From positions 7,550 to 71,549 of the forward strand of contig DASPXJ010000062.1 of assembly GCA_035637355.1 (NCBI GenBank): 64,000 nucleotides of DNA. The letters are read 5' to 3'. Source of the stretch: Gemmatimonadales bacterium (lineage in GTDB: Bacteria; Gemmatimonadota; Gemmatimonadetes; Gemmatimonadales; GWC2-71-9). The translations under genes were made by a program, and so were the position numbers. This document shows, piece by piece, positions 2-60,195 of this stretch; the stretch's first letter is position 1; every line of letters begins with the position of its first letter. The notes under the pieces are model-generated. The model worked only from the letters and a program-made list of their open reading frames with translations, made no database searches and was not told where the DNA came from.

Positions 2-2701
2 CTCGCCCAGGTGGAGGCGGACGCCCGGTTCTATCAGGCGTCGGGTCCATTCGACCTCGGGCCGGGGCAGTCGCAGACGATCGTGGTGGCGTACATCCAG
101 GCCGCCCCGGTCAAGACCGCCGGCGTGACGCAAGGCACCACGTTGCCGCCCGGCATCCCGTTCACGGGTGACTCGATCGCCGCGAACCCGAGCAGGGTGC
201 GACTCATCGACCGGGTCGCGGGCTGGGTGTCGCAGAACGACGCGAACGGCAACGGCGTCATCGAGCAGAACGAAGTCGTGACGACACCCCGCTCGCTGCT
301 CAACAAGGCGCTGGTCGCGCAGGCGGTGTTCGACGCCAAATTCCTGCTGCCCAACGCGCCGTCGGCGCCGCAGTTCTTCCTGGTGCCGGGCGACAACTCG
401 GCGACGGTCGTGTGGCAGCGGAGCGCGACGGAGACCGACGGTGACCTCTACTTCAGCATCGCGAGCCGGCCGTACAACGTCGACTCGGTCGGCGACAGCA
501 CGCGCAACGCCCTCTACGACCCGAACTTCCGTCAGTTCGACGTCGAGGGCTACCGCATTTACCGCGGCCGCACCTCGAGCGAGCTGCAGTTGCTCGCGCA
601 GTTCGACTACTCGGGGACACAGATCATCGACTACACCGGCGGAGTCGCGTACGGCGACCTGACCGGGGACGGCCATGTGCAGTGCGCCCCCGAGCTCGGG
701 TTGCAGGCCGACTGCCCCGTCGTGTTCGACACGTCTTGGGTAAAGACCAAGGGTTACCCGACCGAGCTCGCCGGGCAGGTCATCCAGGTTAAGGCGGGCG
801 AACGGGTTCAGCTGGCCAATGGCGACGTGCTGAACCTCACGGCGGATACCGCTATTGTCGGCGGTGCGCGTGGCTTCCCGCCGCTGACGAACACCGGCGT
901 GGCGTTCGCGTATAACGATAACAACGTCCGCAACGGCTTTACGTATCACTACGCCGTCACGGCATTCGACGTGAACTCGGTGAAGTCCGGTCCCAGCTCG
1001 CTCGAATCGACGCGGATCACCAAGACGGTGACGCCGCGGGCGCCGTCCGGCCAGGAAGTCGCCGGCACGCTGGCGCCGCAGGAGCTGCTCGCGGCGAACG
1101 GCTCGGTGCTCAACGCAGCGGCCCCGCTGCCGACGCTCGATGCGACGACGGGTCAGTTCTCCGGCCCGATGCCCCCGACCGACGGCATTCAGGTGGGCCT
1201 GGCGGCGTTCCTGCCGCAGTTGCTCGGCAACGGCAGCCTCACGGTCAAGATCGACTCCATCACCGTCGGCATGCAGGAGCTGGACGTGCTGCCGGGGTCG
1301 GCGCGCGACGCCGTCTACTATTTGACGGGCCAGGGCGCGGGGGCACCGGTACATTTCGTTCTGCCGATGCAGCCCGCCAGCGGTTTCGACGGATCGACCG
1401 CAGATACATCGGCCAGTGCCGCCTTTGAGGCAACGGCCATCGACTCCGCGAAATCATCCCGCTTCGGCGGCAACCGGACGTTCTCGCTGTTCGGGCAGAC
1501 CACGCTCGCGCTTCCGGGAACGTTCCGGCTGACGAACTGGGGCCGCGCCGATGCGAATGGCATCCCTGAGAACTCGGCGCGCAATGGTCCGCGCTGGTGG
1601 GCGGGAGCGGCCAACGAAAACACGGTCGATCCCGTCGGCGGTAATTGCACGCCCGCGAGTGGCGGGTGCGCCAGTACGGTGAAGGTGCCCGATCTTACCA
1701 AGACGGCCGGGCAGATCGCCGGTGTGACGATTGCGGGCGTGCATTCGTACCTGCAAACACCCAACTCTCCGGGCCGGATCCTCGAAGGGGCAACAGCCAC
1801 CGTGGCTCGCGCCGCCGACTTCCACGTCGTGTGGGGGGCCGCCGGGGCGATCGACACCGTGTGGGACGACACGCACGGTGTGCCGGTGCCGTTCAGCGCC
1901 AAGGTGGGACCGAGCTGGGGCATTCTGGACACAGCGTCGTTTGCCAATACGCCGCAGGCGTCGACTCGTGACGCCAAGAATGGCCTGCTCACCTGGTCGG
2001 ACATCTTCTGCGTGGCTCCGATGCCGCGCTACACGACGCAGTGCGGCGGCATTGCCGACTCGCTCGGTGCCGTGCTGCAGAACACGGCGTCGTTGGACCC
2101 GATCGCGATCCGCGACACGTTGGCCAGCTACGCCGGGACCGCTGCGGCCGGGTACACGACCACCGGCGACGGTTTCATCTTCTATCTGAACGGCCACTTC
2201 TTCCTGATGCAGATGGCCACGCTGCCCACGGCCGGAACCGTGTGGCACGCCCGCTTCTATTCGGGTGTGATCACGGGTACGTCAGGCTCTTACGCCTTCG
2301 CAGGGGAAGTGCGGCCGCCCAACGTGCCGGGCCTGCGCGTGCGGGTGGTGTACACGGGCTCGACGTTCAATCCGGCCACCACGACCGCGGCCAACATGCA
2401 GCGGATCCACACGGTGCCCGATCCGTACTATGTGTCGAACGCGCTGGAGACGAACGCCAACAACAAGGTTCTCAATTTCGTGAACCTGCCGGCGCAGGCG
2501 ATCGTGCGGATTTACTCCGTCAGTGGTGTGCTGGTGAATGTCTTGACGCACAATGATCCCACCGGTGGCGGGTTGCTGACGTGGAACCTGCGGAACCGCA
2601 ACAACCAGTTCGTAGCCTCCGGCGTGTACTTCTATCACGTCGAGGCGCCGGACGGCCAGACAAAAATCGGCCGGTTCACCGTCGTCAACTTCGCGCCATG
2701 A
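2..2701 (+). CDS. Large secreted protein, 5'-truncated at the window edge, with FN3-like modules and a C-terminal T9SS-type (FlgD-Ig-like) sorting domain
   Basis: The frame is open from base 2 (the ORF track starts at GTG 11). GYRIYRG and GFTYHYAVTAFD motifs are typical of FN3-like modules. The last ~75 aa (AIVRIYSVSGVLVNVL...WNLRNRNNQFVASGVYFYHVEA...GRFTVV) fit the T9SS type-A CTD / FlgD-Ig pattern. Third codon positions are G/C-rich. Confidence 0.6.
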   Translation, partial: LAQVEADARFYQASGPFDLGPGQSQTIVVAYIQAAPVKTAGVTQGTTLPPGIPFTGDSIAANPSRVRLIDRVAGWVSQNDANGNGVIEQNEVVTTPRSLLNKALVAQAVFDAKFLLPNAPSAPQFFLVPGDNSATVVWQRSATETDGDLYFSIASRPYNVDSVGDSTRNALYDPNFRQFDVEGYRIYRGRTSSELQLLAQFDYSGTQIIDYTGGVAYGDLTGDGHVQCAPELGLQADCPVVFDTSWVKTKGYPTELAGQVIQVKAGERVQLANGDVLNLTADTAIVGGARGFPPLTNTGVAFAYNDNNVRNGFTYHYAVTAFDVNSVKSGPSSLESTRITKTVTPRAPSGQEVAGTLAPQELLAANGSVLNAAAPLPTLDATTGQFSGPMPPTDGIQVGLAAFLPQLLGNGSLTVKIDSITVGMQELDVLPGSARDAVYYLTGQGAGAPVHFVLPMQPASGFDGSTADTSASAAFEATAIDSAKSSRFGGNRTFSLFGQTTLALPGTFRLTNWGRADANGIPENSARNGPRWWAGAANENTVDPVGGNCTPASGGCASTVKVPDLTKTAGQIAGVTIAGVHSYLQTPNSPGRILEGATATVARAADFHVVWGAAGAIDTVWDDTHGVPVPFSAKVGPSWGILDTASFANTPQASTRDAKNGLLTWSDIFCVAPMPRYTTQCGGIADSLGAVLQNTASLDPIAIRDTLASYAGTAAAGYTTTGDGFIFYLNGHFFLMQMATLPTAGTVWHARFYSGVITGTSGSYAFAGEVRPPNVPGLRVRVVYTGSTFNPATTTAANMQRIHTVPDPYYVSNALETNANNKVLNFVNLPAQAIVRIYSVSGVLVNVLTHNDPTGGGLLTWNLRNRNNQFVASGVYFYHVEAPDGQTKIGRFTVVNFAP

Positions 2702-2712
2702 GGAGATACAAC

Positions 2713-3837
2713 ATGACCAATCATTTGTGGCGTGCCTGCGGCGCGATGATGCTCGCGGCGGTGCTGGTCGCTCCGGCAGCCGCACAGCAGGGCACACAGG
2801 ATAACACGGCCTACGGCGGCGCCTCCGGGGAGTTCCTGCTCCTCGGGGCGGGCGCCCGCGGCACGGCGCTGGGCGGCGCGTACGCGGCGCTCTCCACCGA
2901 CATCACCGCGATGTACTACAATCCCGCCGGGCTGGCGCAGCTCGCCCGTCCCGGCGTGATGCTGTCGACGAGTCAGTACATCGCGGATACCAAGTACGCG
3001 TGGGCCGGCATCGCCTTCCCGCTGGCGGGCGGCGTCCGCTCCGTGGGCCTCAGCCTCGGCTCCTTCGGGTTCAGCGACCAGCCGATTTACACTCTCACCG
3101 ATCCCGATGGGAATGGCCGCACGTACTCGGTGCGCCAGACCTTCATCTCGGGAACGCTCGCGCAGAACTTCTCCGATCGCTTCTCCGCGGGCGTCACGCT
3201 CAAGTTCATCAACGATCGGCTCGGCACCGCCAAGGCCAACGGCGTGGCCGTCGATTTCGGTACGAACTTCCACGCCTCGGTGGGCGCGCGGCCGATTCGC
3301 GCGTCGTTCGTGATCCAGAACCTCGGCACGAACCTGCAGCACAGCGGCGAAGATCTCATCGTCGGTGTCACGCGGCAGCCGCCGCTCGGCACCGTCGATG
3401 TGCCGCAGGAGCCGCAGTCGGCGGCGCTGTCGACGAGCTCCTGGACCCTGCCCGTGCTGTTCCGGGTGGGCGTGGCCCTCGATCTCGTGGCGCAGGGCTC
3501 CAACCACCTGACCGTGTTGTCGGAATTCACGCAGCCCAACAACACGAAGCCCGGCGCCGGCGCCGGCTTCGAGTGGGCGATGCAGAACATCGGGCAGCGC
3601 GGCTTCTCGGTCGCGGCCCGGGGCAGCTATACGATTCAGCCCGATAACCAGGTGAACGACCTGGTCATCGGGATACCGACCAAGGAGAGCAGCGGCACGT
3701 TCACCGCGGACGGGCTGTCGCTGGGCGGCGGGCTCGAATACGCGCGCGGCCAGACACGCCTGGGCTTCGATTACGCGTGGAAGAGCCTCGGCACACTCGG
3801 CTCCGTGAACTTCCTCAGCTTCAGCATCGGCTGGTAG
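2713..3837 (+). CDS. PorV/PorQ-family (FadL-like) outer-membrane beta-barrel
   Basis: ATG 2713 follows AGGAGA. Signal peptide MTNHLWRACGAMMLAAVLVAPAAA|QQ. The N-terminal motif ARGTALGGAYAALSTDITAMYYNPAGLA is characteristic of the PorV/PorQ family. The protein ends in an aromatic residue (SFSIGW). The ORF-track start at 2581 overlaps the upstream gene and was rejected. Confidence 0.6.
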   Translation: MTNHLWRACGAMMLAAVLVAPAAAQQGTQDNTAYGGASGEFLLLGAGARGTALGGAYAALSTDITAMYYNPAGLAQLARPGVMLSTSQYIADTKYAWAGIAFPLAGGVRSVGLSLGSFGFSDQPIYTLTDPDGNGRTYSVRQTFISGTLAQNFSDRFSAGVTLKFINDRLGTAKANGVAVDFGTNFHASVGARPIRASFVIQNLGTNLQHSGEDLIVGVTRQPPLGTVDVPQEPQSAALSTSSWTLPVLFRVGVALDLVAQGSNHLTVLSEFTQPNNTKPGAGAGFEWAMQNIGQRGFSVAARGSYTIQPDNQVNDLVIGIPTKESSGTFTADGLSLGGGLEYARGQTRLGFDYAWKSLGTLGSVNFLSFSIGW

Positions 3838-13042: not shown

Positions 13043-14200
13043 CTAGGTAGGGGCTTTACGCAGTAGATACACAGCGCCGACGGCAACGAGAATGTTCGGT
13101 GCCCAAGCCGCGAGCAGCGGCGGCAGCACGCCGCCCGCGCCGATCGCCTTCGCCAGCTGAAACATCAGCAGCACGATGAAGGTCGTCGCGAGACTCGCCG
13201 CGACTCCCCACGCCGCGCCGCTCTTGGGCGTCGAGATGGCGAGCGGCGCGCCGAACAGCGCGATCAACAGACAAATGAAAGGGATTGCGATCTTGAGCGC
13301 GAGATCCACCTGCAGCTTCTTTGCGTTCGAGCCGCTGCGCGCCAGCGCGTCGATGTAGCGCCGCAGCTCCGCGTACCGCATCTCCTCCGGCGTCTTCGGC
13401 TCGGCGAGCAGATCCACCGGCCGCTCCTGCAGCGTGCGCGACTCGAGCGAATCGAACTCGAACGCGACCTCCCCGGTCGGCTCGCTGCCCGCGAGATAGC
13501 GCAGCGCGCCGCGATGCAGCCGCCAGCGCGGCGACTTGGTCAGCCCCCCCCCCGCCGCCGGGCCGGTGTCGCTGTAGACCGCGCGCTGCGCCGCCAGCAC
13601 GATCGTCGGATAGGCGGCGCTGGTCCCTTCGCGCTCCAGCACGAGGTCGGTCATCTCTTTGGTCCGCAGCTCCAGCGACCGGATCGCATACACCCACCCG
13701 CGATCGGCGCGATAGACGAAGTTGTAGCGCGAGCTCGTGGCACGCTGCGCCTTCTCGCCGAGCATTTCCATCCGGTGCGCCGTCGCCGCCGGTGCGATCT
13801 CGCCCAGCAGTAGCCCCGCGACGAACGCCGCCCCGGCGGCGATGAACAGCGGCCGCACGAGGCGGTGAAACGAAATCCCCGACGCCTTCGCCGCCGTCAG
13901 CTCCGAATGCCTCCCCAGCGCACCGACGGTGAAGACGGTCGCGAACAGCACCGCGACCGGCAGGACGAGAAACATTTTTTCCGGCAGGTCGAACACGTAC
14001 GAGTACGCGACCACCTGCGGCGCGATGCCGCGGCCCATGTAGCGGTCGAGCTTGTCCGTCAGGTCGATCACGATGACGAGAATGGGAAAGCCGAGCAGCG
14101 TGATCAGAAACACGCGCAGCCAGTCGCGCACCAGGTAGCGGTCGAGCGTCTTCCCGAACGCGAAACGCGGAAGTCGGAACGCGGAACGGACGTCGATCAT
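13043..14200 (-). CDS. lptG: LPS export ABC permease, LptF/LptG (YjgP/YjgQ) family
   Basis: LDRYLVRDWLRVFLITLLGF N-terminal motif and 6-TM layout with a large periplasmic insert. ATG 14200 overlaps the upstream stop (ATGA). Confidence 0.75.
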   Translation of the reverse strand: MIDVRSAFRLPRFAFGKTLDRYLVRDWLRVFLITLLGFPILVIVIDLTDKLDRYMGRGIAPQVVAYSYVFDLPEKMFLVLPVAVLFATVFTVGALGRHSELTAAKASGISFHRLVRPLFIAAGAAFVAGLLLGEIAPAATAHRMEMLGEKAQRATSSRYNFVYRADRGWVYAIRSLELRTKEMTDLVLEREGTSAAYPTIVLAAQRAVYSDTGPAAGGGLTKSPRWRLHRGALRYLAGSEPTGEVAFEFDSLESRTLQERPVDLLAEPKTPEEMRYAELRRYIDALARSGSNAKKLQVDLALKIAIPFICLLIALFGAPLAISTPKSGAAWGVAASLATTFIVLLMFQLAKAIGAGGVLPPLLAAWAPNILVAVGAVYLLRKAPT

Positions 14201-15726
14201 GCGTTCCGCGTTCCCCGTTCCCACTTCCGAATTCGCCCCACCCAGCCAAACAGCTGCTCCTTCAGCTCATCCCAATCCCCCCCGTGCGCGGTGCTGCCGG
14301 CGCGCCGCACGGTCCACAGCAGCGGGATCGAGAGCGTCAGGAAGATGAGATTCGGCGTCCACATCGCCAGGAACGGCGGCACGATGAGCCGGTCGCCCAG
14401 CTCTTCGCCGCCGATCAATCCGACATAATAGACGGAAAAAACCGCGAGGCTCGTTCCGATCACCAGGCCGACGCCACCGCGCGGGAAGCGAATGGCGAGC
14501 GGCATGCCGAGCAGCGCGAAGATCAGGCACGCGGCCGCGATCGCCAACTTCTTCTGAATCTCGACTTCGTAGATCGCGGCGCGCTGGCGGGCCGCGCGCA
14601 CCCGCTGCGCGTACACGCTGGGGGGGGGGCTGGCGGATTGCTGCCCAACGTACGAGAGGTTGGGCGGCGGCAGCCGGGGGGAGACAGGAGGGCGTTTCAG
14701 CCGCGCGGGGGTCTGTGCGGCTTGGGCCGCGCGGGGAGCGACCAGCCGCTTGATCGAGCCGACGAACCGGCAGTACGCGCTCGGCGGCGGTGCTGCGGTG
14801 TCGGCGGGAGCCGGCGTCAGCGGGTGCAACTTGCCGATCCGCCGCAGCTCGGCCGACACGGACGCGAGCGTCTCGCGCCGCACCCGGTCCATGTCCTGGC
14901 GCGCGCGCCCCACGACCTCCTGCATCGCGCAGATCGTCATCTCGCGGTCGCCGCGGTACTCGTCGTTCTGCGTCTGCTCGAACGTGTTGCTGACGCCCGC
15001 CACCTTGATGCGGTTGACGGCGTAGAAGGTCCGGTTGAAGTGCTCCGCATCGGCCCGCTTCACTTCGTGCACCTCGCCGTCGCGCAACGTGAGGTACAAA
15101 TCGGTGCCGCCGGGGGTATAAGCCATGCGACCGGAGTCGGCCAGGATGATACGGCGCCGCTCGGGGTCCCCCAGATCGTAAATCGTCACATCATTCAGTG
15201 TGTTCGCGGCGGGGTCGATGCGGGCGGCGCGCAGGAAGAATTGCCCGGCCACGACTTCATTGATCACCTGTTCCTTCAACTGAAACGTCGGCTTCTTGCG
15301 TTGGATGTCGACGAGGAGCGTCCGCAGCTGGTGATTGGAGCGCGGCAGGATCTGGTCATTCCACAACAGCGAGATCAGGGCGACGACCGTCGCGCCGCCG
15401 ATCACCGGTGCGAGCAGGCGCCGCACGCTGATGCCGCTCGCCTTCATCGCCGTGACCTCGTTGTCGGCGGCGAGGTGGCTGAACGTGTACAGCACCGCGA
15501 CGAGCACCGCCATCGGCAGCGTCATGGCGACGATGAACGGGATCGAGAGCGCGAACACTTCGAAGATGGCGGTCCACGGCAGGCCTTTGCCCACGAAATT
15601 GCCGAACTGCTTCGCGATCTGATTGACCAGCATCGCGAACGTGAGCGCCGCCAACGCGTATCCGAGTGGAGGGAGGTGTTGCCGCAGGATGTAACGGCTC
15701 AGGATGCGCACGGTCGGTCGCGCCAT
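14197..15726 (-). CDS. lptF: LPS export ABC permease, LptF/LptG family, with a long Pro/Ala-rich insertion
   Basis: ILSRYILRQHLPPLGYALAALTF motif. The start is either ATG 15726 or GTG 15738. An extra stretch of roughly 100 aa (TPAPADTAAPPPSAY...PPVSPRLPPPNLSYVGQQSASPPPS) precedes the last TM bundle. Confidence 0.75.
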   Translation of the reverse strand: MARPTVRILSRYILRQHLPPLGYALAALTFAMLVNQIAKQFGNFVGKGLPWTAIFEVFALSIPFIVAMTLPMAVLVAVLYTFSHLAADNEVTAMKASGISVRRLLAPVIGGATVVALISLLWNDQILPRSNHQLRTLLVDIQRKKPTFQLKEQVINEVVAGQFFLRAARIDPAANTLNDVTIYDLGDPERRRIILADSGRMAYTPGGTDLYLTLRDGEVHEVKRADAEHFNRTFYAVNRIKVAGVSNTFEQTQNDEYRGDREMTICAMQEVVGRARQDMDRVRRETLASVSAELRRIGKLHPLTPAPADTAAPPPSAYCRFVGSIKRLVAPRAAQAAQTPARLKRPPVSPRLPPPNLSYVGQQSASPPPSVYAQRVRAARQRAAIYEVEIQKKLAIAAACLIFALLGMPLAIRFPRGGVGLVIGTSLAVFSVYYVGLIGGEELGDRLIVPPFLAMWTPNLIFLTLSIPLLWTVRRAGSTAHGGDWDELKEQLFGWVGRIRKWERGTRNA

Positions 15727-15756
15727 TATATTCGCCACCCCAAATCTCTACAAGGG

Positions 15757-18700
15757 ATGCGGCGTCTCGCCCAGCTAGTTTTGCTCGCCTTCACGCTCGT
15801 CGTACCCCGGGTTCATGCGCAGGCTCCTGCGTACACGTTCGGCGTGCCGCCGCTCGTCGCGCCGCGCCATCCGGCACTGGCGCCGGGCGGCCGCCTCGGC
15901 GCGCGCGTCCCGCCCGTGCTCGTCGCGCGCGCCTGGGCTGACGCGGTTCTCGCTGGCCGGTTTTCGGTGTTCGGAGCCGGACCGATGGCACTCGCCCCGT
16001 CCCCCGTCTCCCCTCCCGCGTCCCCCGAAGCTCCTCCGACCTTCCAGGGCATCGGTCCCGGCGAGCATCGCGGCGTCCTTGGCCAGTATGCGGATCTCGG
16101 CATGCAGCTCAACCTGCGCTTCGAGCTGAAAGTGGATCAGTTCCGCAATCTGCGCTGCACGTCGCAGGAGCGGCAGTTTTCGCTGTCGGGATGCAGCGGC
16201 GGCTTTCCCACGATCAGTCCTAATCCGCAGTACGCGATCCGCACCGCCGGTGTCGTGGGGCAGCGGCTGCACGTCGACGTCGACTTCGACAGCCAGCGCG
16301 AGTTCGACGCCAACAACAACCTCCACGTCTGGTACGAGGGCCTGGAGGACGAAGTCCTGCGGCGGGTCGAGGCCGGCAACGTGACGTTCCAGGCGCCCCC
16401 GTCGCGGTTCATCACCGCCGCGGTCCCCGCCAACAATTTCGGCGTGCAGGCGATCGCCCAGCTGGGGGCGCTGGAGTTCCGCGGCATCCTGGCGCAGCAG
16501 AAGGGCAACGTGGTGAAAGACCGGTTCTACAGCGTCGGCGACGTCACCAGCCAGCCGATCGATCGCGAGTCCCGCGACCTCGATTACGAGGCCGGCCGGT
16601 TTTTCTTCGCCATCGATCCGGGCGCGCTGCCGGGCTATCCCGCGATCGACATTCTCCAGCTCGATCAGCTGGCGCGCCCCGATTCGCTGACCGTCGGCGC
16701 GCTGCGCGTGTACCGCCGGCGCGCGATCGCGCCGAGCTCGAGCGGCAACCAGAACGTGGGCGGCGTGCGCGCCGTGGCGTGCGCTCCCGGGAGCCGCGCG
16801 GTGGATTGCGCGATTCAGCGCGAGGGCCCCTTCGAGTGGGAGATCCTGCAGGAAGGGAAGGACTACTACGTCGATCCCACCGGCACGTGGTTCGCCCTGG
16901 CGAACCGGCTCGATCAAAGCGATTACCTCGCCGTCTCGTACATCACCGCGACCAAGGCCGATTCGATCGGCACCTTCCCGGTCGATGCGAACCCCGACAC
17001 CGCGGTCGTGGACACGCTGCGGCTCGTGTACGATCCCAAACCGGCGGTCACTGCGGCGTCGCCGTCATTCCGGTTCGAGATCCGCAGCGCCTACCGCGTC
17101 GGCGGGCGCGAGATCGACCGCACCAGCGTCGATCTCGCCCTGACCGTGAACCAGCGCGAGCGGGGCGCCACCGGCGATACCTACCTGCAACGTCTCGGCC
17201 TCGCCCTGGAGAACGACCCCACGCAATTCGATCAGTACAACCGCCTCTTCCCGCGGGCCCGCGATCCGAATCAGGGGGATCCGGTGCGGGATCTGTTCAT
17301 CGTGTTTCCGCATCTGGCGCCGTTTGCCGACACGACGACGCTCGTCGCCACCGAGCGCAACGATTCGCTGTACCGCACGCCGCGCGCCTATCTCGCGACA
17401 CAGGGGCCGCCGTCGGTATTCGCGCTGCGACTGCACGTCGAGGCCACCGCGTCCGCCGACCGCTCCGTGCTGTCCTTGAACAGCTTCCAGATCCGGGAAG
17501 GCAGCGAGCGCATCTACGTGCGCAACACGCTGCTGACGCGCGAAACGGATTACACGATCGATTACACGACCGGCCAGGTGCAGTTCAAGAACGCCGATTC
17601 CCTGTTCAGCGGGGGAGCGGCGCAGGTGCGGGCGCAATTCGAGGAGCGGGCCGCCTTCAGTCTGGCGCCCACCACGACGTATGGCCTCGCGGCGCGCTAC
17701 GATCTGGGCGCGGTGGGGCAGGTCAACCTGATGGGCATCTTCCAGAACGAGCAAAGCACGTTCACCCGCCCGCCGCTCGGCTTCGAGCCGTCGTCGGGCT
17801 TCATCGGCGGCATATCCACGCAGCTCCGCTTCCAGCCGGACTGGATCACGCGCGCCATGGATGCGCTGCCGGGCGTCCACACTACGGTGCCGTCGGCCGT
17901 GAGCATCAACGGGGAGCTCGCGATCTCGAAGCCTTCCCCCAACCGCTTCGGCCAGGCCTACATCGAGGAATTCGAGGGCGGCGTCGCCCGGTCGATCCCG
18001 CTCACGGACAACCTGTGGCACTGGGGCAGCATTCCGACGTCGATCCGCGGCGCCGAGCCGCTCGGCGTCACGGGCGGCTTCGACCCGAATGACGCCGCGT
18101 TCCTCACCTGGCAGAGCCTGCCCTACAACGTGAGCAACAACCAGTTCGTCCCCGTGCAGTTTCTGCCCCAGCAGATCGATCCCACCTTGCGCTTCAGCGG
18201 CCAGGCGCAGGCGGCGGAACCGGTGCTGTGGCTCATGATGAAGCCCGACACCGTGCTCGGCCTCGCGAACAACCGTCCCGCATCGCCGTCGTTCGGGCTC
18301 CCGAACTGGACGCGCGCAACGCACGACGCGCCGCGCTGGCGGTCGATCGTGCAGACGCTGTCGGCAACCGGCGTCGATCTCTCGCGCGTCGAATTCCTGG
18401 AGTTCTGGGTGTGGGAAGACGCGGCGCGCGTGGCGCGCGCCCATCGCACGACCGTGTTGTTCGATTTCGGCAGCGTCTTCGAGGACGCGCTCGCCTTCGT
18501 GCCCGCATCGTTCACCGTGAGTCCCGAAGGCGACACGACGTACTTCGGCGTGCAGCGCGCCGGCGCGAGGCGGCTCGACTCCGAGCGCGATCCCCGCACC
18601 CAGACCTGGAGCGCGACGCTGAACGACGAAGGCATCCTGTCCGATCGTGTGGTGGACGGCATCCTGGATGGCACCACCAGCACCGTCATCGACACCCTGC

Positions 18701-21700
18701 CGCTGTGCTCCGCGACCGAGAACGGCCAGCTGATTCCCTACGCTTTCGGCGACATCCGCTCGCGCTGCGGCCGGCACAACGGCGCGGTCGATACGGAGGA
18801 TCAGGACGGCGATTTCGTGCTCGACTCACTCACCGGCGTGCGCACGGCGGAGAGTTTTGTGCGCTACGTGTTTCCGATCGGCGACGAGCGCTATTTCGTG
18901 CGCGATGGCGGCATGGTCTCCAGTCCGTCCGGCGGCGCCTCGGGCTGGCGGTTGTACCGGATTCCGTTCCGCACCGACACGCTGCAGATCGGCGCGCCCC
19001 CCCCCAGCCTGCGGCAGGTGCAGTCGCTGCGGATCACGATCGTGGCGCCGCCGCCGGCCACGCCCGGCACGCCCGACCCGCAGGTGTATTTCGCGCTCTC
19101 GCGCGTGCGGCTCATCGGCAGCTCGTGGGTCAAGCGCAGCGACACGCCGCTGCCCGGGATCGGTGGCGAGCGCGGCACTGGGATCGGGGAGGTCGTCGCG
19201 TCGGTCGTCAGCACGGAGAACCGCGATCTCGGATACACGCCGCCGCCCGGCGTGGCGGACCAGGCGGGACGACGCGATGCCAATTTCCAGATCGGCTCCA
19301 CCGAAATCAACGAGCGCTCGTTGCGGCTGCTCGGCCGGGGCCTGGGCCGCGGCGAGCGCGCCGAAGCTTATCTCCGGTTCACGACCGAAGGCGACAAGAA
19401 TTTCCTCAAGTACCGCACCCTGCGGGTCTGGGCGCGGGGTCGTGGGGCAGGGTGGGAGGACGGCGACCTCGAGTTCTTCATCAAGGCGGGCAAGGACCAG
19501 GACAACTTCTACATGTACCACACCCCCGCGCGCACCATCTCGTGGGAGCCGGAGGTCGTCGTGCAGTTCGAGCGCTGGCTGGCGCTGCGCGCGCGCATCG
19601 AGCAGGCGTGGCTCTCCGGTGACAGCGCGCACGTGTACCCGGGATGCCCCGATTCGACGCTCGTGCCGAACGACGGCGCGTTCGTCATGTGCGAAGGCCC
19701 CTACATCGTGCACGTGCACGATCCGGGGAGCGCTCCCCCGAACCTGGCGCGGGTGCAGGAGATCGCGGCGGGGATGTGGCGCATCAACACCGGCGTCTTC
19801 GTCGATCAGGCGGAGCTGTGGGTGGACGACATCCGGTTGGGTGACGTGGTGCGCGAGACCGGCGCGGCCGGCGCCCTCGATCTCGCGATCGCGGCCGCAG
19901 ACGTCGCCGATGTGTCACTGGCGCTGTCGCGTCGAGACGGCCAGTTCCGCCAGCTGACCGAAGATCCGTCCTACACGACGGATAACGTCGCGAACCTCAG
20001 CGGGACGGTGCGGGTCGACCGCTTTCTGCCGGATCGCTGGGGACTCTCCGTCCCGGTGACATTCCAGCGCACGCTGGCCGCGAGCGAGCCCTTCTACCTG
20101 AGTCAGACGGACCTGCGCGCCGATGCGCTCCAGGGGCTGCGCACGCCCCGCTCGACGGCGGCCAGCTACGCGTTTTCCGCGCGCCGCATCCGCACCGCCG
20201 CCGGCGGTCTCGCCCGCTGGCTGCTCGATCCGGTGTCGGTCGCGGGCTTGTGGGCCAGCGGTGACGTGCGCACCGAGCTGTCGCGCGCGAGCGCGTCGAA
20301 CTACGCCTTGAGCCTCGATTACTCCATGGCGCCGAACGCCGCGGTCGTCCGGCTCGGCGGCGTGTCGCTGCGGCTCAATCCTTCACGCGTCCATTTCCGC
20401 TCCGGCATCGTGGGGTCGGACGGCGAGCGCGCGACGTTCGTCGTGCCGATCCAGCTGCCGGGGGATACGGCACCGCCGGCGATTTCGCAGACGCGACTGT
20501 GGCAAAACTCCGGTGGCGTGTCGCTCGCGCCGCTCACCGGCGTCCAGCTGGGTGTCGATGCCACCTCCACCCGGGATCTGCGTGACTACGGCGACTCGAC
20601 GACGATCGGCCGCCTCATCCGCCAGCAGCGCTCCTCGTTGTTCGGGAGCAACGTCGGCATCGAGACCCAGCGTCTCATTACATCGTCGCTCGCGCTCACG
20701 CCGCGCGTGGGAAGCTGGATACGCCCCCGCGCGTCCGTCGCTTCCACGTTCGCCTTCACGCGCGACCCCAATGCCCGCCAGCCGGCGCGCACCGAAGGCG
20801 ACACCGCGGGCGAGTTCCGGGTTCCGGCGGCGTTCAGTAACGCGCGCCGGTTCGAGACCGGGGCGCAGCTCGACACGCGCCGCCTGGCGCAGTCGATCTT
20901 CGGCGACTCCTCGGTCGTCACGCAGTGGCTCGGCCGCATCACCGGCGTCGACGTGTCGTATGGCGCCCAGCAGGCGTCCAGCTTCAGCCGCGCGACGGAC
21001 GCCCCGCCGACGGGATATCAATTCGCGCTGGGAGGATTCGATGCCTTCCGCGCGGTGAATGGCGTGCCTGCGACGTCGGCGACGCAGAGCACCACCTTGT
21101 CGACGGGCGGCGCGGCCGTGCTGCCGCTCGGGCTGCGCCTGAACGCCACCTTCCGGCGCACGCGGGGCATCGCATGGACGTTGCGCACCGATCAGCAGGT
21201 CGCGATCCGCAACCGGACCCGGGAATGGCCCAGCGGAGCGATCACCTGGTCGCTCTCACCCTCGCGCGCGTTTGTGGGCCGGATCCTGTCGAACATCAGT
21301 GCCCGCGTCGGCTACCGCCGCGCCGAGTCGGTGAACGAACAGCCGACCTTCGGAACGCCGGGGAGCGTCTCGTTGGCCAGCACGGTCGACAAGTCCTTCA
21401 CGCCGTCCGTTTCCCTCACGTGGCTGGGTGTCGTGTTCACCACGGTGGACCTCTCCCGGACCTCCTCGGATCGGGTCGCGGCGGGGAATCTGTTCCGCAA
21501 CGTGCGCAACGGGCAGAACAGCACCGTGACCTTCTCGTTCAAGCCACCGCGCCTGGGCCGCTGGCGCTCCAACATCCGCACGACGGCGGGGTATTCCGTA
21601 GCCGACAACACGATCTGTCTGCGCCGCGCCGGGCAGCCGGACTGCGTGCCGTACGTGGACAGCCGGCAGTCGCAGGCCCAGCTTACCATGGACACCGATC

Positions 21701-21834
21701 TTCCCAACAACATGGGCGCGGGCCTGCAGATGGCGTATGTCCTCAATGAGGAGCGGCAAACGAACCGCAAGATCTCCCAGTTCGTGATTACGGCCTTCGT
21801 CCAGCTGTCGACCAGCGTGGGGCAGATCCGATGA
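15757..21834 (+). CDS. sprA: SprA/Sov-like T9SS translocon (giant outer-membrane beta-barrel)
   Basis: True start at ATG 15757 (signal peptide MRRLAQLVLLAFTLVVPRVHA|QA). The product is about 2025 aa. The N-terminal region (VEAGNVTFQAPPSRFITAAVPANNFGVQAIAQLGALEFRGILAQQKGNV) resembles the repeated SprA N-terminal motif. The 5' 1.47 kb of the 2516-aa track ORF is antisense to lptF and was rejected. Confidence 0.7.
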   Translation: MRRLAQLVLLAFTLVVPRVHAQAPAYTFGVPPLVAPRHPALAPGGRLGARVPPVLVARAWADAVLAGRFSVFGAGPMALAPSPVSPPASPEAPPTFQGIGPGEHRGVLGQYADLGMQLNLRFELKVDQFRNLRCTSQERQFSLSGCSGGFPTISPNPQYAIRTAGVVGQRLHVDVDFDSQREFDANNNLHVWYEGLEDEVLRRVEAGNVTFQAPPSRFITAAVPANNFGVQAIAQLGALEFRGILAQQKGNVVKDRFYSVGDVTSQPIDRESRDLDYEAGRFFFAIDPGALPGYPAIDILQLDQLARPDSLTVGALRVYRRRAIAPSSSGNQNVGGVRAVACAPGSRAVDCAIQREGPFEWEILQEGKDYYVDPTGTWFALANRLDQSDYLAVSYITATKADSIGTFPVDANPDTAVVDTLRLVYDPKPAVTAASPSFRFEIRSAYRVGGREIDRTSVDLALTVNQRERGATGDTYLQRLGLALENDPTQFDQYNRLFPRARDPNQGDPVRDLFIVFPHLAPFADTTTLVATERNDSLYRTPRAYLATQGPPSVFALRLHVEATASADRSVLSLNSFQIREGSERIYVRNTLLTRETDYTIDYTTGQVQFKNADSLFSGGAAQVRAQFEERAAFSLAPTTTYGLAARYDLGAVGQVNLMGIFQNEQSTFTRPPLGFEPSSGFIGGISTQLRFQPDWITRAMDALPGVHTTVPSAVSINGELAISKPSPNRFGQAYIEEFEGGVARSIPLTDNLWHWGSIPTSIRGAEPLGVTGGFDPNDAAFLTWQSLPYNVSNNQFVPVQFLPQQIDPTLRFSGQAQAAEPVLWLMMKPDTVLGLANNRPASPSFGLPNWTRATHDAPRWRSIVQTLSATGVDLSRVEFLEFWVWEDAARVARAHRTTVLFDFGSVFEDALAFVPASFTVSPEGDTTYFGVQRAGARRLDSERDPRTQTWSATLNDEGILSDRVVDGILDGTTSTVIDTLPLCSATENGQLIPYAFGDIRSRCGRHNGAVDTEDQDGDFVLDSLTGVRTAESFVRYVFPIGDERYFVRDGGMVSSPSGGASGWRLYRIPFRTDTLQIGAPPPSLRQVQSLRITIVAPPPATPGTPDPQVYFALSRVRLIGSSWVKRSDTPLPGIGGERGTGIGEVVASVVSTENRDLGYTPPPGVADQAGRRDANFQIGSTEINERSLRLLGRGLGRGERAEAYLRFTTEGDKNFLKYRTLRVWARGRGAGWEDGDLEFFIKAGKDQDNFYMYHTPARTISWEPEVVVQFERWLALRARIEQAWLSGDSAHVYPGCPDSTLVPNDGAFVMCEGPYIVHVHDPGSAPPNLARVQEIAAGMWRINTGVFVDQAELWVDDIRLGDVVRETGAAGALDLAIAAADVADVSLALSRRDGQFRQLTEDPSYTTDNVANLSGTVRVDRFLPDRWGLSVPVTFQRTLAASEPFYLSQTDLRADALQGLRTPRSTAASYAFSARRIRTAAGGLARWLLDPVSVAGLWASGDVRTELSRASASNYALSLDYSMAPNAAVVRLGGVSLRLNPSRVHFRSGIVGSDGERATFVVPIQLPGDTAPPAISQTRLWQNSGGVSLAPLTGVQLGVDATSTRDLRDYGDSTTIGRLIRQQRSSLFGSNVGIETQRLITSSLALTPRVGSWIRPRASVASTFAFTRDPNARQPARTEGDTAGEFRVPAAFSNARRFETGAQLDTRRLAQSIFGDSSVVTQWLGRITGVDVSYGAQQASSFSRATDAPPTGYQFALGGFDAFRAVNGVPATSATQSTTLSTGGAAVLPLGLRLNATFRRTRGIAWTLRTDQQVAIRNRTREWPSGAITWSLSPSRAFVGRILSNISARVGYRRAESVNEQPTFGTPGSVSLASTVDKSFTPSVSLTWLGVVFTTVDLSRTSSDRVAAGNLFRNVRNGQNSTVTFSFKPPRLGRWRSNIRTTAGYSVADNTICLRRAGQPDCVPYVDSRQSQAQLTMDTDLPNNMGAGLQMAYVLNEERQTNRKISQFVITAFVQLSTSVGQIR

Positions 21835-22751
21835 AATCGTGCGTGGTGCGTGGTACGTGGTGCGTGGGAATGGTCTTCACATTGGCGTGCCAGGCGCGCG
21901 CGGGCGATGGCAAGGGCGGCGCGAGTGAATTCAGTGGGCCCACGGCGTTCACCTACATCGAGAAGCAGATGTCGTTCGGCCCGCGCATTCCGAACAAGCC
22001 GGGCCATGAGCAGACGGGCGACTGGCTGCTCGCCGAGCTCCGCGCGCGCGCCGACACCGTGATCGTTCAGGAGATTCGCCACTTCACGCGGAAGGGCGAG
22101 ACGCTCCGGCTGCGGAATTTCTTCGCGCGCTTCCGCCCGCAGGCCAGCGAGCGCGTGCTGTTCCTGGCACACTGGGACACGCGGCCGATGGCCGACCGCA
22201 GCCAGAACCTTGGCCAGCAGCGGCTGCCCGTGCCCGGCGCCAATGATGGGGCGTCGGGAGTCGCGGTGCTGCTGGGCGTCGCGGACGCGCTCAAGGCTCA
22301 CCCGCCGGCCAACGGAGTCGATCTGCTCTTCGTGGACGGCGAGGACTACGGCGATTTTGCCGATTCGAACGACGTGTTGATCGGATCGCGCTGGTTTGCC
22401 GCCCATCAGCCCGCCGGCTATCAACCATTGTTCGCGGTGCTGTTCGACATGGTCGGCGACAAGGATCTGCAGATCTTCCAGGAAGGCCAGTCTATGGCCT
22501 TCGCGCCCGAGGTCGTGCAGCGAGTGTGGCGGGTCGCGGCGCAGCGGGGCCACGAGCGCCAGTTCGTCCCGAGCGTGGGGCAGACCCTCATTGACGATCA
22601 CGTCTCGCTCCAGAAGGCGGGCATCCACGCGATCGACATCGTGGACTTCGATTATCCGTACTGGCACACGACCGAGGATACGATCGATAAAGTCAGCCCG
22701 GAATCACTGCAGATTGTCGGTGATGTGGCGGTGGCACTGGTGAGGCAATAA
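21831..22751 (+). CDS. M28-family glutaminyl-peptide cyclotransferase-like protein
   Basis: The ATG overlaps the sprA stop (ATGA). LFLAHWDTRPMADRS...VPGANDGASGVAVLLGVADAL matches the bacterial type-II glutaminyl cyclase / M28 metal-site pattern. The N-terminus has a hydrophobic segment ending in TLAC, a possible lipobox. Confidence 0.65.
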   Translation: MKSCVVRGTWCVGMVFTLACQARAGDGKGGASEFSGPTAFTYIEKQMSFGPRIPNKPGHEQTGDWLLAELRARADTVIVQEIRHFTRKGETLRLRNFFARFRPQASERVLFLAHWDTRPMADRSQNLGQQRLPVPGANDGASGVAVLLGVADALKAHPPANGVDLLFVDGEDYGDFADSNDVLIGSRWFAAHQPAGYQPLFAVLFDMVGDKDLQIFQEGQSMAFAPEVVQRVWRVAAQRGHERQFVPSVGQTLIDDHVSLQKAGIHAIDIVDFDYPYWHTTEDTIDKVSPESLQIVGDVAVALVRQ

Positions 22752-22755
22752 ACGG

Positions 22756-22880
22756 CGGCGGTCAAAGGCAAGTGCGGCGGTCAAGAAACAAAATCGGCGG
22801 TCAACAAACAACTACGACCGTCGACCGCCGCAGTCGTCTCTTGACCGCCGCATTTTTCGTTTGACCGCCGCGTTTTTTTT
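22756..22880. repeat. Three direct plus three inverted copies of CGGCGGTCAA at 20-bp period, ending in a T8 run
   Basis: Direct copies are at 22756, 22775 and 22795. Inverted copies (T[T/C]GACCGCCG) are at 22821, 22841 and 22861. Extended pairings reach 10-14 bp per segment. TTTTTTTT lies at 22873..22880. Confidence 0.8.
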
Positions 22881-22917: not shown

Positions 22918-23307
22918 ATGGACGATCGTCGCGCCGCGCTCTTGCTGGCGTGCCTGGCCTTGGCCGGCGCTGGCGTTCGATTCGTGTTGTCACCCTCTCC
23001 AGATCACCCGCCAGGTGATATTCGACTCCAATCGACCGCCGAATCCCGGCCGGGCGCGCTGCGAGAAGTCGCCAATCGCGCGGCGCGCCTTTCCCGCCCA
23101 CTGATGCCAGGGGAGCGCATCGACCTCGATCGTGCAGATGTGAGCGAAATCACTCGCCTGCCACGGATCGGTCCCGCATTGGCGCAGCGCATTGTTGCGT
23201 GGCGCAGCGAACACGGTCCGTTTGGCAGTCTCGCGCGGCTCGACAGCGTGCCTGGCGTGGGTGCCAAATTATTGGACGCCATACGCCCTTTCGTCGTCCA
23301 GCCTTGA
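22918..23307 (+). CDS. comEA: ComEA-like helix-hairpin-helix DNA-binding protein
   Basis: N-terminal anchor MDDRRAALLLACLALAGAGV. C-terminal IDLDRADVSEITRLPRIGPALAQRIVAWRSEHGPFGSLARLDSVPGVGAKLLDAI is the ComEA HhH pair. The start is uncertain; 22882 is an alternative. Confidence 0.65.
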   Translation: MDDRRAALLLACLALAGAGVRFVLSPSPDHPPGDIRLQSTAESRPGALREVANRAARLSRPLMPGERIDLDRADVSEITRLPRIGPALAQRIVAWRSEHGPFGSLARLDSVPGVGAKLLDAIRPFVVQP

Positions 23308-59025: not shown

Positions 59026-60195
59026 ATGCCGACGCGCCGTCGCGTCTTAGCCGTGCTGCTCGTGCTTGCTGCGCAGTTCTTTCCCGCAGGGCGTGCGCTC
59101 GCCCAGCAGCCGGGCCCATCCTGGCGTCCCAGAATGCGGCTGCAAGGCGAAGTGCGCTACGACAATAACCCGTTTTTGCTCGACGCCACCCGGAAGCAGC
59201 GCCTGGAAGCGCCTTCGGCGGCGGATTCGGTGAACGGCCGGTTCCGCGACATGCAAAATGCGACTGACATCATTCCGGTTGCGTCGGCGGACGTCGCGCT
59301 GGGATTGCCGGGGGCGTTCGGCCGTCCGTTGGAGATCTCGGCTGACGCGGCTTACGAGGCAAACGTCAACAATGCGCATCGCCGGCACGCCGAGCTAAGC
59401 TTCGCACTGGAGCAGGCACTCCCCAAGGCGGGCCGCACGCGGCTGCGGGCGGAGTGGCGCCCGTCGTACTTCTGGAGGAACTACTTGAGCGACGCGATCG
59501 ATGACAACGGAGACAACAATATCGAACCGAGCGAGCGTATTTACCGTCCGGGAACGTCGGACGAGCTCGACCTCACGCTCAACGTACGCCGGCGATTGTT
59601 GAAACGCATTCGTGGCGAGCTCGAAGCAGGCTACTTCACCCGGACGTACGCCGCGCCCTTCGACGGCCGAGATCGTCGCGGTCCAGGCGCGGCTGCTGGT
59701 ATGTCGCTCGAGATAGGCAAACGCTCGACCGCTGGTGTTGACTACGCCTTTCAATCGCTCCAGTCGGATGTGGCGCGCGAAGTCATGATCCTCGATGAGA
59801 CCGCATTCGGCGTTGACTTCAACGGCATCAACGGTGCCAGCGACACGGCGGCGCGGGCGTTCGAGCTGGTGGATCGCTCACGCGTCGAACACAACGTCGA
59901 GCTGTCGGTTCAGACCGAGCTGTCAGATGCCGTGACGCTGGCGTTGGGCTACGCACGCCGGATGCGCGTCTTCGGCTCGAGCCAGCCGTACGACGTCGCG
60001 GACCGTGACCGGCGGGACACGCGCAACGAGTTCACGGCGGAGCTGACGGTTCGTGTCAGGCACGGCATGCGCTTCACCGTGAGTGGGGCCGCTGCGAGGC
60101 AGAACACAAACCGTGGCGGCGATCCGGGGGCCAGCGGAGAAGTCGCCGATTATTCGCGCTCCGTCGTGACCGCGGGCCTCGCGTACCGCTTCTAA
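59026..60195 (+). CDS. Predicted outer-membrane beta-barrel protein; function unknown
   Basis: Signal peptide MPTRRRVLAVLLVLAAQFFPAGRALA|QQ. Alternating amphipathic strands. Terminal GLAYRF (aromatic C-terminus). Confidence 0.5.
   Translation: MPTRRRVLAVLLVLAAQFFPAGRALAQQPGPSWRPRMRLQGEVRYDNNPFLLDATRKQRLEAPSAADSVNGRFRDMQNATDIIPVASADVALGLPGAFGRPLEISADAAYEANVNNAHRRHAELSFALEQALPKAGRTRLRAEWRPSYFWRNYLSDAIDDNGDNNIEPSERIYRPGTSDELDLTLNVRRRLLKRIRGELEAGYFTRTYAAPFDGRDRRGPGAAAGMSLEIGKRSTAGVDYAFQSLQSDVAREVMILDETAFGVDFNGINGASDTAARAFELVDRSRVEHNVELSVQTELSDAVTLALGYARRMRVFGSSQPYDVADRDRRDTRNEFTAELTVRVRHGMRFTVSGAAARQNTNRGGDPGASGEVADYSRSVVTAGLAYRF

Follow-up and report, generated by a model that had tools for sequence, protein, structure and literature searches.

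In a stretch of 64,000 nucleotides from a Gemmatimonadales genome (assembly GCA_035637355.1, contig DASPXJ010000062.1, positions 7,550 to 71,549 of the forward strand; hereafter the window, to which all positions refer), the gene sprA, encoding a homologue of the outer-membrane translocon in the T9SS (type IX secretion system), overlaps with a gene of the M28 family whose product is, judged by sequence and predicted fold, a type II glutaminyl cyclase (QC) resembling PgQC of Porphyromonas gingivalis. This gene pair is conserved across the phylum Gemmatimonadota and recurs in other phyla, and glutamine (Gln) is the commonest residue behind the signal peptides of the source genome, a bias known from Bacteroidetes as the Q-rule. 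We hold with good confidence that the enzyme is a general Q-rule cyclase that is co-expressed with sprA from an ancient operon. The source is a metagenome-assembled genome (MAG) of 3.3 Mb with 66% G+C; its affiliation with the Gemmatimonadales bears out an earlier note on this DNA, which had suspected a host outside the Bacteroidetes.

The overlapping gene pair and the identity of its second member

The sprA gene (15757-21834, plus strand) extends from an ATG at 15757 to a TGA at 21832-21834 and encodes 2025 aa. Its product matches the T9SS translocon model Sov/SprA (TIGR04189) with 481 bits at a cut-off of 200, matches PF14349 (SprA_N) as well, and finds the F. johnsoniae SprA 6h3i at E 4e-22; the source genome contains one copy of the gene. 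The QC gene (21831-22751, plus strand, 306 aa) begins within the sprA stop. The sequence at 21829-21834 is cgATGA, and the genes thus share the four bases ATGA at 21831-21834, exactly as the earlier note had read the end of a SprA-like gene of about 2025 aa and the start of an M28 gene. The end of sprA and the start of the QC gene coincide in eight further relatives, seven of them from the same genus and one (G069) from a sister genus.

Directly behind the QC stop codon, a composite hairpin followed by eight T resembles an intrinsic terminator (22752-22880, plus strand, 129 nt). Its RNA folds with -75.4 kcal/mol (z -9.6; none of 200 shuffled sequences was as good) ahead of a U8 tract, and it represents at least a terminator-like element. 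Within sprA, a consensus scan found only two such sites, both weak and below the counts in shuffled sequence. Because of the ATGA overlap, the common strand and the strong terminator-like end that appears only after QC, the two genes resemble a bicistronic unit. The hairpin itself combines three CGGCGGTCAA units with three inverted copies of them, and these periodic arms suggest that it belongs to a repeat family.

The M28 protein matches PF04389 (Peptidase_M28) with 119 bits and contains the motifs HWDTRP and GANDGASGVAVLL, which had led to the proposal that it is a cyclase. Searches against solved structures returned the bacteroidal QCs 6qro (TfQC, E 5.9e-59) and 6qql (PgQC, PG2157/PGN_0202, E 1.5e-54), followed by 4fuu, 3tc8 and 3gux at about 1e-52, whereas M28 aminopeptidases were matched at 1e-9 or weaker. 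The sequence identity amounts to 36-38% with PgQC and TfQC and, in structure-based comparison, to 33-34% with BtQC (4fuu/7d1e) and PdQC (3tc8). A maximum-likelihood tree places the window protein in one clade with PgQC, TfQC and homologues from about eight lineages. A long branch with a support of 100/99 parts this clade from the four M28 paralogues of the genome, and the Gemmatimonadota QCs are monophyletic within the tree, again with 100/99. The fold agrees with this placement. An AlphaFold2 model (predicted local distance difference test score, pLDDT, 93.3; predicted template modelling score 0.88) superimposes on 7d1e, 3tc8, 6qql and 6qro with template modelling (TM) scores of 0.86-0.92 and root mean square deviations of 1.3-1.5 Å, and the 50 best Foldseek matches in the PDB are all QCs or bacteroidal M28 entries for which re-annotation as QCs has been proposed (PMC7948796).

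The earlier note had also suggested the zinc ligands as a test, a full di-zinc set indicating an aminopeptidase. The residues with which aminopeptidases coordinate their second zinc are, as far as is known, also kept by type II QCs, and the QCs aligned here all have H114 and D206. This part of the proposal was therefore dropped, as the ligand set does not separate the two enzyme classes cleanly by sequence, and was replaced by the equivalent of Asp183, the glycine described below, the tree and the fold. The active-site codons lie within 22245-22667 on the plus strand, with D139 at 22245-22247 (G140 next), E171-D172 at 22341-22346 and H279 at 22665-22667. We take E171 to be the general base, corresponding to Glu201 of human QC. 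D139, D172 and H279 are the equivalents of the PgQC ligands Asp149, the bacteroidal-specific Asp183 and His299, which bind one zinc (PMC7948796). D139-G140, E171-D172, D206 and H279 are invariant in two QC alignments (A1 and A2). Both the glycine after the bridging aspartate (D139-G140), which goes with a trans peptide and a single-zinc site, and the tryptophan ahead of the histidine ligand (W278-H279) are present in the window protein. On this evidence, from ligands to tree and fold, the claim that the protein groups with PG2157-type cyclases and not with aminopeptidases stands, and the enzyme is predicted to act as a cyclase.

Two variations in the QC sequences deserve mention. Some Gemmatimonadaceae QCs in alignment A1 (L026, L029 and L048) carry histidine in place of W278, with PYHHT for PYWHT. 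Furthermore, the loop before the W-H motif is seven residues shorter in all aligned Gemmatimonadota QCs than in PgQC and TfQC.

The enzyme is a predicted lipoprotein. Its N-terminus (MKSCVVRGTWCVGMVFTLA followed by C, that is …VFTLA, Cys20 and Gln21; 21831-21893, plus strand, with Cys20 at 21888-21890) fits the lipobox pattern of uncharged residues followed by [LIVMFWSTAG]2-[LIVMFYSTAGCQ]-[AGS]-C, and residues 1-30 are modelled with a pLDDT of about 55 and thus lie outside the fold. PgQC has likewise been drawn with a putative lipid anchor, Cys21, on the cytoplasmic membrane (PMC7948796). The bacteroidal QCs share with the window QC the fold, the zinc ligands including the bacteroidal-specific aspartate, the Glu-Asp pair (E171-D172) and a lipoprotein signal, and both occur in genomes whose signal peptidase I (SPI) substrates mostly start with Gln. 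The genetic context differs: PgQC heads the PG2157-PG2158-hemG operon (PMC10653852), whereas the window QC overlaps sprA in a member of the phylum Gemmatimonadota.

Glutamine behind the signal peptides

According to the earlier note, six of seven SPI-type signal peptides in the window are directly followed by Gln, and re-reading the translations gave the same count. The sites, with the cleavage position marked by an arrow, are APAAA↓QQ for a PorV/Q-like protein, AAA↓QS for a GWxTD protein, AHA↓QG for a TonB-dependent receptor, VHA↓QA for SprA, LVA↓QQ for PilP and RALA↓Q for the outer-membrane barrel at 59026; the exception is PilQ (ALA↓GT), which has glycine at +1. The signal peptide of SprA consists of MRRLAQLVLLAFTLVVPRVHA followed by QA (15757-15822, plus strand), with the +1 Gln encoded at 15820-15822 as read from the translation. 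SprA orthologues of other loci show A↓Q at the N-terminus in most cases, and SprA is therefore one of the presumed substrates of the cyclase.

For the genome-wide count, 3057 genes were called with a self-trained codon model, 213 lipobox proteins were removed, and the remainder was scored with a home-made signal-peptide matrix of 15 columns. This matrix covers positions -15 to -1 only, so the residue at +1 cannot steer the choice of the site. With this predictor Gln is the commonest +1 residue, found at 40 of 59 sites (68%) with a score of at least 11, at 64 of 111 (58%) with at least 10 and at 98 of 200 (49%) with at least 9. The Gln background of the proteome is 3.3% (binomial P about 4e-88), which answers the question of the earlier note whether the bias exceeds background in the whole genome. 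The shares are also well beyond the values of other phyla, which stay under 10%. The excess is position-specific, as the Gln share at every neighbouring position (-2, +2, +3) is at most 0.11, and internal decoy sites scored in the same way gave 6-7%. A small-x-small↓Q motif lies within three residues of 64% of the sites, and the true share of Gln at +1 is therefore probably higher.

The same pipeline, applied to 400-kb samples of four other Gemmatimonadota genomes, resulted in 29-62% Gln at +1 (cut-offs 8-10), and the Q-rule was thus found in all five genomes of the phylum that were sampled. Most exported proteins of the source genome would start with Gln, and the trait very probably works in Gemmatimonadota. 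It resembles the Bacteroidetes Q-rule in the share of predicted SPI substrates concerned, about half to two thirds, in its extension over functional classes and in the presence of a QC in nearly every genome (PMC5837995, PMC10653852). It differs in that the enzyme behind the Gemmatimonadota rule may be a QC of type II or of type I.

Conservation, loss and neighbourhood of the two genes

The earlier note had left it open whether the adjacency of sprA and the cyclase gene is peculiar to this genome; it reaches far beyond it. The sprA C-terminus lies directly upstream on the same strand in 30 of 30 QC loci from the genus and the order. Among 201 evenly sampled genomes of Gemmatimonadota, 163 contained an M28 QC and 157 sprA. 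Coordinates for both genes were available for 110 of them, and in 101 of these the QC gene lies 0 to about 800 nt downstream of sprA (2.5 kb in two cases). The nine others comprise three in which the pair is split by contig ends and six, all of genus g68, in which QC is located elsewhere. Of 101 Ignavibacteriota genomes, all have sprA and 82 a QC gene; in 76 of these 82, QC follows sprA on the same strand. The pair also recurs in two KSB1 MAGs, Candidatus Zhuqueibacter, an Ignavibacteria MAG, a Cytophagia-labelled MAG and an unclassified MAG, where an sprA open reading frame of about 2000-2150 aa ends 4-130 nt before QC. The QCs from other phyla are 41-47% identical to the window QC and yet stand 4-130 nt behind sprA.

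The neighbourhood of the pair is conserved as well. In the window, lptG (13043-14224) and lptF (14197-15738), both on the minus strand and assigned by PF03739 (LptF_LptG; 233 and 281 bits, respectively), are divergent from sprA. The start codons of lptF and sprA stand back to back with a spacer of 18 nt (15738-15757), which would place both promoters inside the neighbouring coding sequences; a scan for consensus sigma-70 promoters around sprA gave no match. Downstream of the pair, comEA (22918-23307) and a type IV pilus cluster follow. In most Gemmatimonadota loci (L031-L131), comEA and then pilB lie directly behind sprA-QC, and the wider order lptG-lptF<>sprA-QC-comEA-pilB, in which <> denotes divergence, is kept across the phylum. 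Divergent lptG-lptF genes also precede the pair in most of the loci named above from KSB1, Zhuqueibacter and the further MAGs (lptGF<>sprA-QC).

Both genes are found without the linkage or without the partner. They are present but unlinked in five Bacteroidota MAGs, two Kryptoniota and one Chlorobiaceae MAG, and two Armatimonadota genomes have QC without sprA. Among the 163 Gemmatimonadota genomes with an M28 QC, 30 have no sprA. Twenty of the sprA-less loci were retrieved, and in 19 QC stands directly beside the divergent lptF and is followed by comEA-pilB, sprA being cleanly missing; the twentieth (L046, genome G211) turned out to hold a divergent sprA. The order lptGF<>QC was also seen in about 15 further loci of a collection scan. 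One sprA-less genome (G025) shows 46% Gln at +1. QCs with and without the linkage are intermixed in the tree, a pattern that implies repeated loss of sprA. The position of QC behind sprA is thus ancient and strongly kept, dispensable, and probably lost in the sampled Bacteroidota.

The reverse case is represented by Gemmatimonas and other lineages, in which the locus has cleanly lost QC and runs sprA-comEA-pilB; only about 430 nt separate sprA from comEA in QC-less genomes, and no QC remnant was found downstream of sprA. Twenty-four genomes have sprA without an M28 QC, and 18 of these carry an unlinked type I QC (PF05096), a beta-propeller enzyme that catalyses the same reaction as type II with an unrelated fold. 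Type I QCs occur in 30 of the 38 Gemmatimonadota genomes without an M28 QC, which brings the number of genomes with some QC of either type to 193 of 201, and they did not adjoin sprA wherever coordinates were compared. The two types are nearly complementary among the 201 genomes, with type II only in 142, type I only in 30, both in 21 and neither in 8. PF05096 is absent from the source genome. All six Gemmatimonas genomes have a type I QC only. The expectation that Gemmatimonas, lacking the M28 enzyme, would lose the Q-rule had to be rejected: the rule is retained, because a type I QC is encoded elsewhere in the genome.

SprA-less genomes keep both the QC slot and the Q-rule, and these observations argue that QC does not depend on sprA. 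The selected trait seems to be the existence of a periplasmic cyclase. The idea of the earlier note that the locus couples the two processes is thereby divided: the genes are linked, but the processes are not demonstrably so.

The further T9SS genes of the window lie near its beginning. A cargo protein with a type A C-terminal sorting domain (CTD) is encoded at 11-2701 on the plus strand, with its start outside the window (TIGR04183, 23.8 bits at a cut-off of 23), and a PorV/PorQ-family barrel at 2698-3837 on the same strand (NF033709, PorV_fam, 133 bits at a cut-off of 90). The genome thus encodes partner parts of SprA, although the cargo is only just above its cut-off. As a member of TIGR04189, as a very large outer-membrane protein that carries a signal peptide, and by the presence of these partners near its gene, the window SprA resembles the known SprA/Sov translocon. 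It is shorter (about 2025 aa against 2403 aa), its strong match to TIGR04189 is limited to the central parts of the model, and its gene differs in having QC behind it and divergent lptFG ahead; no match to GldM/PorM was found in the genome, nor in the controls of that search.

The sprA genes of four Gemmatimonas genomes (G095, G182, G161 and G119) score far higher with TIGR04189 (919-1251 bits against about 480 summed for the window gene) and nevertheless occupy the orthologous slot, sprA-comEA-pilB. Probably their sequences are near the seed of the model; a replaced or a less diverged sprA would be the alternative. Genome G163 holds two sprA copies with equal hidden Markov model scores (208.8 bits) on contigs C4 and C5, and among the listed matches QC follows the C5 copy only.

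Weighing the explanations

The explanation that we favour can be outlined as follows. The genes for SprA and the PgQC-type QC would make up a single transcription unit of two genes that diverges from lptFG and ends in the hairpin and U-tract. Ribosomes that end sprA at its TGA may restart at the overlapping ATG, so that the cyclase would be made together with the translocon. Exported as a lipoprotein anchored by Cys20 and facing the periplasm, the enzyme would convert the N-terminal Gln left by SPI into pyroglutamate (pGlu). Its substrates would be most proteins exported via Sec and SPI, including SprA, the PorV/Q-type barrel, TonB-dependent receptors and PilP, and the pGlu cap may shield them from aminopeptidases, as shown for Porphyromonas. 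The cyclase would accordingly serve the whole exported proteome, as a Gemmatimonadota Q-rule, and not type IX secretion alone, and its slot behind sprA would descend from an old lptGF<>sprA-QC operon that is common to several phyla of the Fibrobacteres-Chlorobi-Bacteroidetes (FCB) type and was lost in the sampled Bacteroidota.

Two other explanations of the adjacency are, in our view, improbable. QC might be a dedicated T9SS accessory that is made stoichiometrically with SprA and acts on, or is needed for, the translocon, its shuttles or its cargo, the Q-rule elsewhere being secondary. The preservation of the order sprA-QC in more than 90% of the genomes with both genes in two phyla, its recurrence in others, the overlapping stop and start codons, the Gln at the start of SprA, its orthologues and the PorV/Q-like protein, and the phylogenetic co-occurrence of T9SS and high Q-values, that is the share of Gln at +1 (PMC5837995), would all fit. 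Against it, QC retains its slot in the 30 of 163 QC-bearing Gemmatimonadota that lack sprA, one sampled sprA-less genome still shows the Q-rule, and Armatimonadota carry QC without sprA. Moreover, the 24 genomes with sprA and without M28 QC include 18 with an unlinked type I QC, the +1 Gln is also found on PilP and the TonB-dependent receptor, which are not T9SS proteins, and experiments in P. gingivalis spoke against pGlu having a part in T9SS targeting (PMC5837995). In the second explanation, the adjacency could be an inherited gene order without present function, sprA and QC being expressed and used independently. Either gene can be deleted cleanly, leaving lptGF<>QC-comEA-pilB or sprA-comEA-pilB, QC has been relocated in genus g68, and Bacteroidota MAGs hold both genes apart. 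However, gene order normally decays fast across phyla, and it has not done so around QCs that share only 41-47% identity, and overlapping or very closely spaced genes with no strong terminator between them argue for one transcript. That the M28 protein is instead a periplasmic aminopeptidase, with another cause for the Gln excess, we regard as very improbable. Its Pfam family and the first deposition of several close solved homologues as 'leucine aminopeptidase' or 'Zn-dependent exopeptidase' would suggest so, but QC re-annotation has been proposed for bacteroidal M28 entries including 3tc8 and 4fuu (PMC7948796). The window protein further has the QC-specific aspartate ligand, the glycine after the bridging aspartate and the tryptophan before the histidine ligand, is placed inside the QC clade with 100/99 support, and finds only QCs or entries of this re-annotation group among its 50 best structural matches.

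Some observations weigh against a general Q-rule cyclase in an ancient operon. The order sprA-QC is kept more strictly than a general housekeeping enzyme needs, which leaves room for a T9SS-specific benefit. The profile of GldM/PorM (TIGR03517) gave no match in the whole source genome, with controls that gave no match either, and without a detected GldM/PorM the translocon role of this SprA homologue is a putative one. The +1 counts come from a home-made matrix and not from SignalP, so the absolute Q-values are rough and probably underestimates. Finally, genome G168, a single contig of 3.31 Mb from the same class, shows Gln at +1 in 10 of 21 sites (score at least 8) without a recognisable QC: there was no PF05096 match at E up to 1e-10 and no M28 QC, the best match to alignment A1 (E 5e-7) being another M28 peptidase. 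Either a third kind of cyclase, a gene in unassembled sequence or a rule that outlives its enzyme would account for this genome.

A bolder reading, which we consider rather unlikely, is that T9SS translocon, cyclase and lipopolysaccharide export (lptGF<>sprA-QC) constitute a single module for outer-membrane biogenesis, ancestral to the FCB-type phyla, in which the cyclase is still functionally linked to SprA. If this were true, pGlu on SprA, on PorV-type shuttles or on cargo could be needed for the assembly or stability of T9SS, the Q-rule and T9SS would have arisen together, and the model Bacteroidia, where pGlu was reported to have no bearing on T9SS targeting, would represent a derived, uncoupled state.

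The Q-rule has been described as specific for Bacteroidetes, with an average Q-value of 71%, values below 9% in most Chlorobi and scattered high values such as 77% in Ignavibacterium (PMC5837995). That paper of 2018 remarked that T9SS and high Q-values coincide phylogenetically, spoke against a link in mechanism and covered neither Gemmatimonadetes nor gene order, and an mBio paper of 2023 stated that the rule holds for Bacteroidetes and not for other phyla (PMC10653852). T9SS genes had been suggested earlier for Gemmatimonadetes (PMC11285876), and full-text literature searches found no paper that links glutaminyl cyclase with sprA or with Gemmatimonadetes. The case presented here differs from the described one in the phylum, in that QCs of either type are used by members of one phylum, and in the conserved order lptGF<>sprA-QC.

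In the literature, the Q-rule and its cyclase count as a peculiarity of Bacteroidetes, which is why PgQC is pursued as a drug target of narrow spectrum; the locus shows that Gemmatimonadota, too, have this type of enzyme and this +1 Gln bias, and a cyclase of type II or type I is nearly universal there. Across phyla, apart from the Bacteroidia that have been studied, the genes for the cyclase and the T9SS pore are physically linked, and this linkage gives the unexplained co-occurrence of T9SS and Q-rule a concrete and testable genetic basis. The natural sprA-less and QC-less variants could serve to separate a general protection of exported proteins from a function as T9SS accessory.

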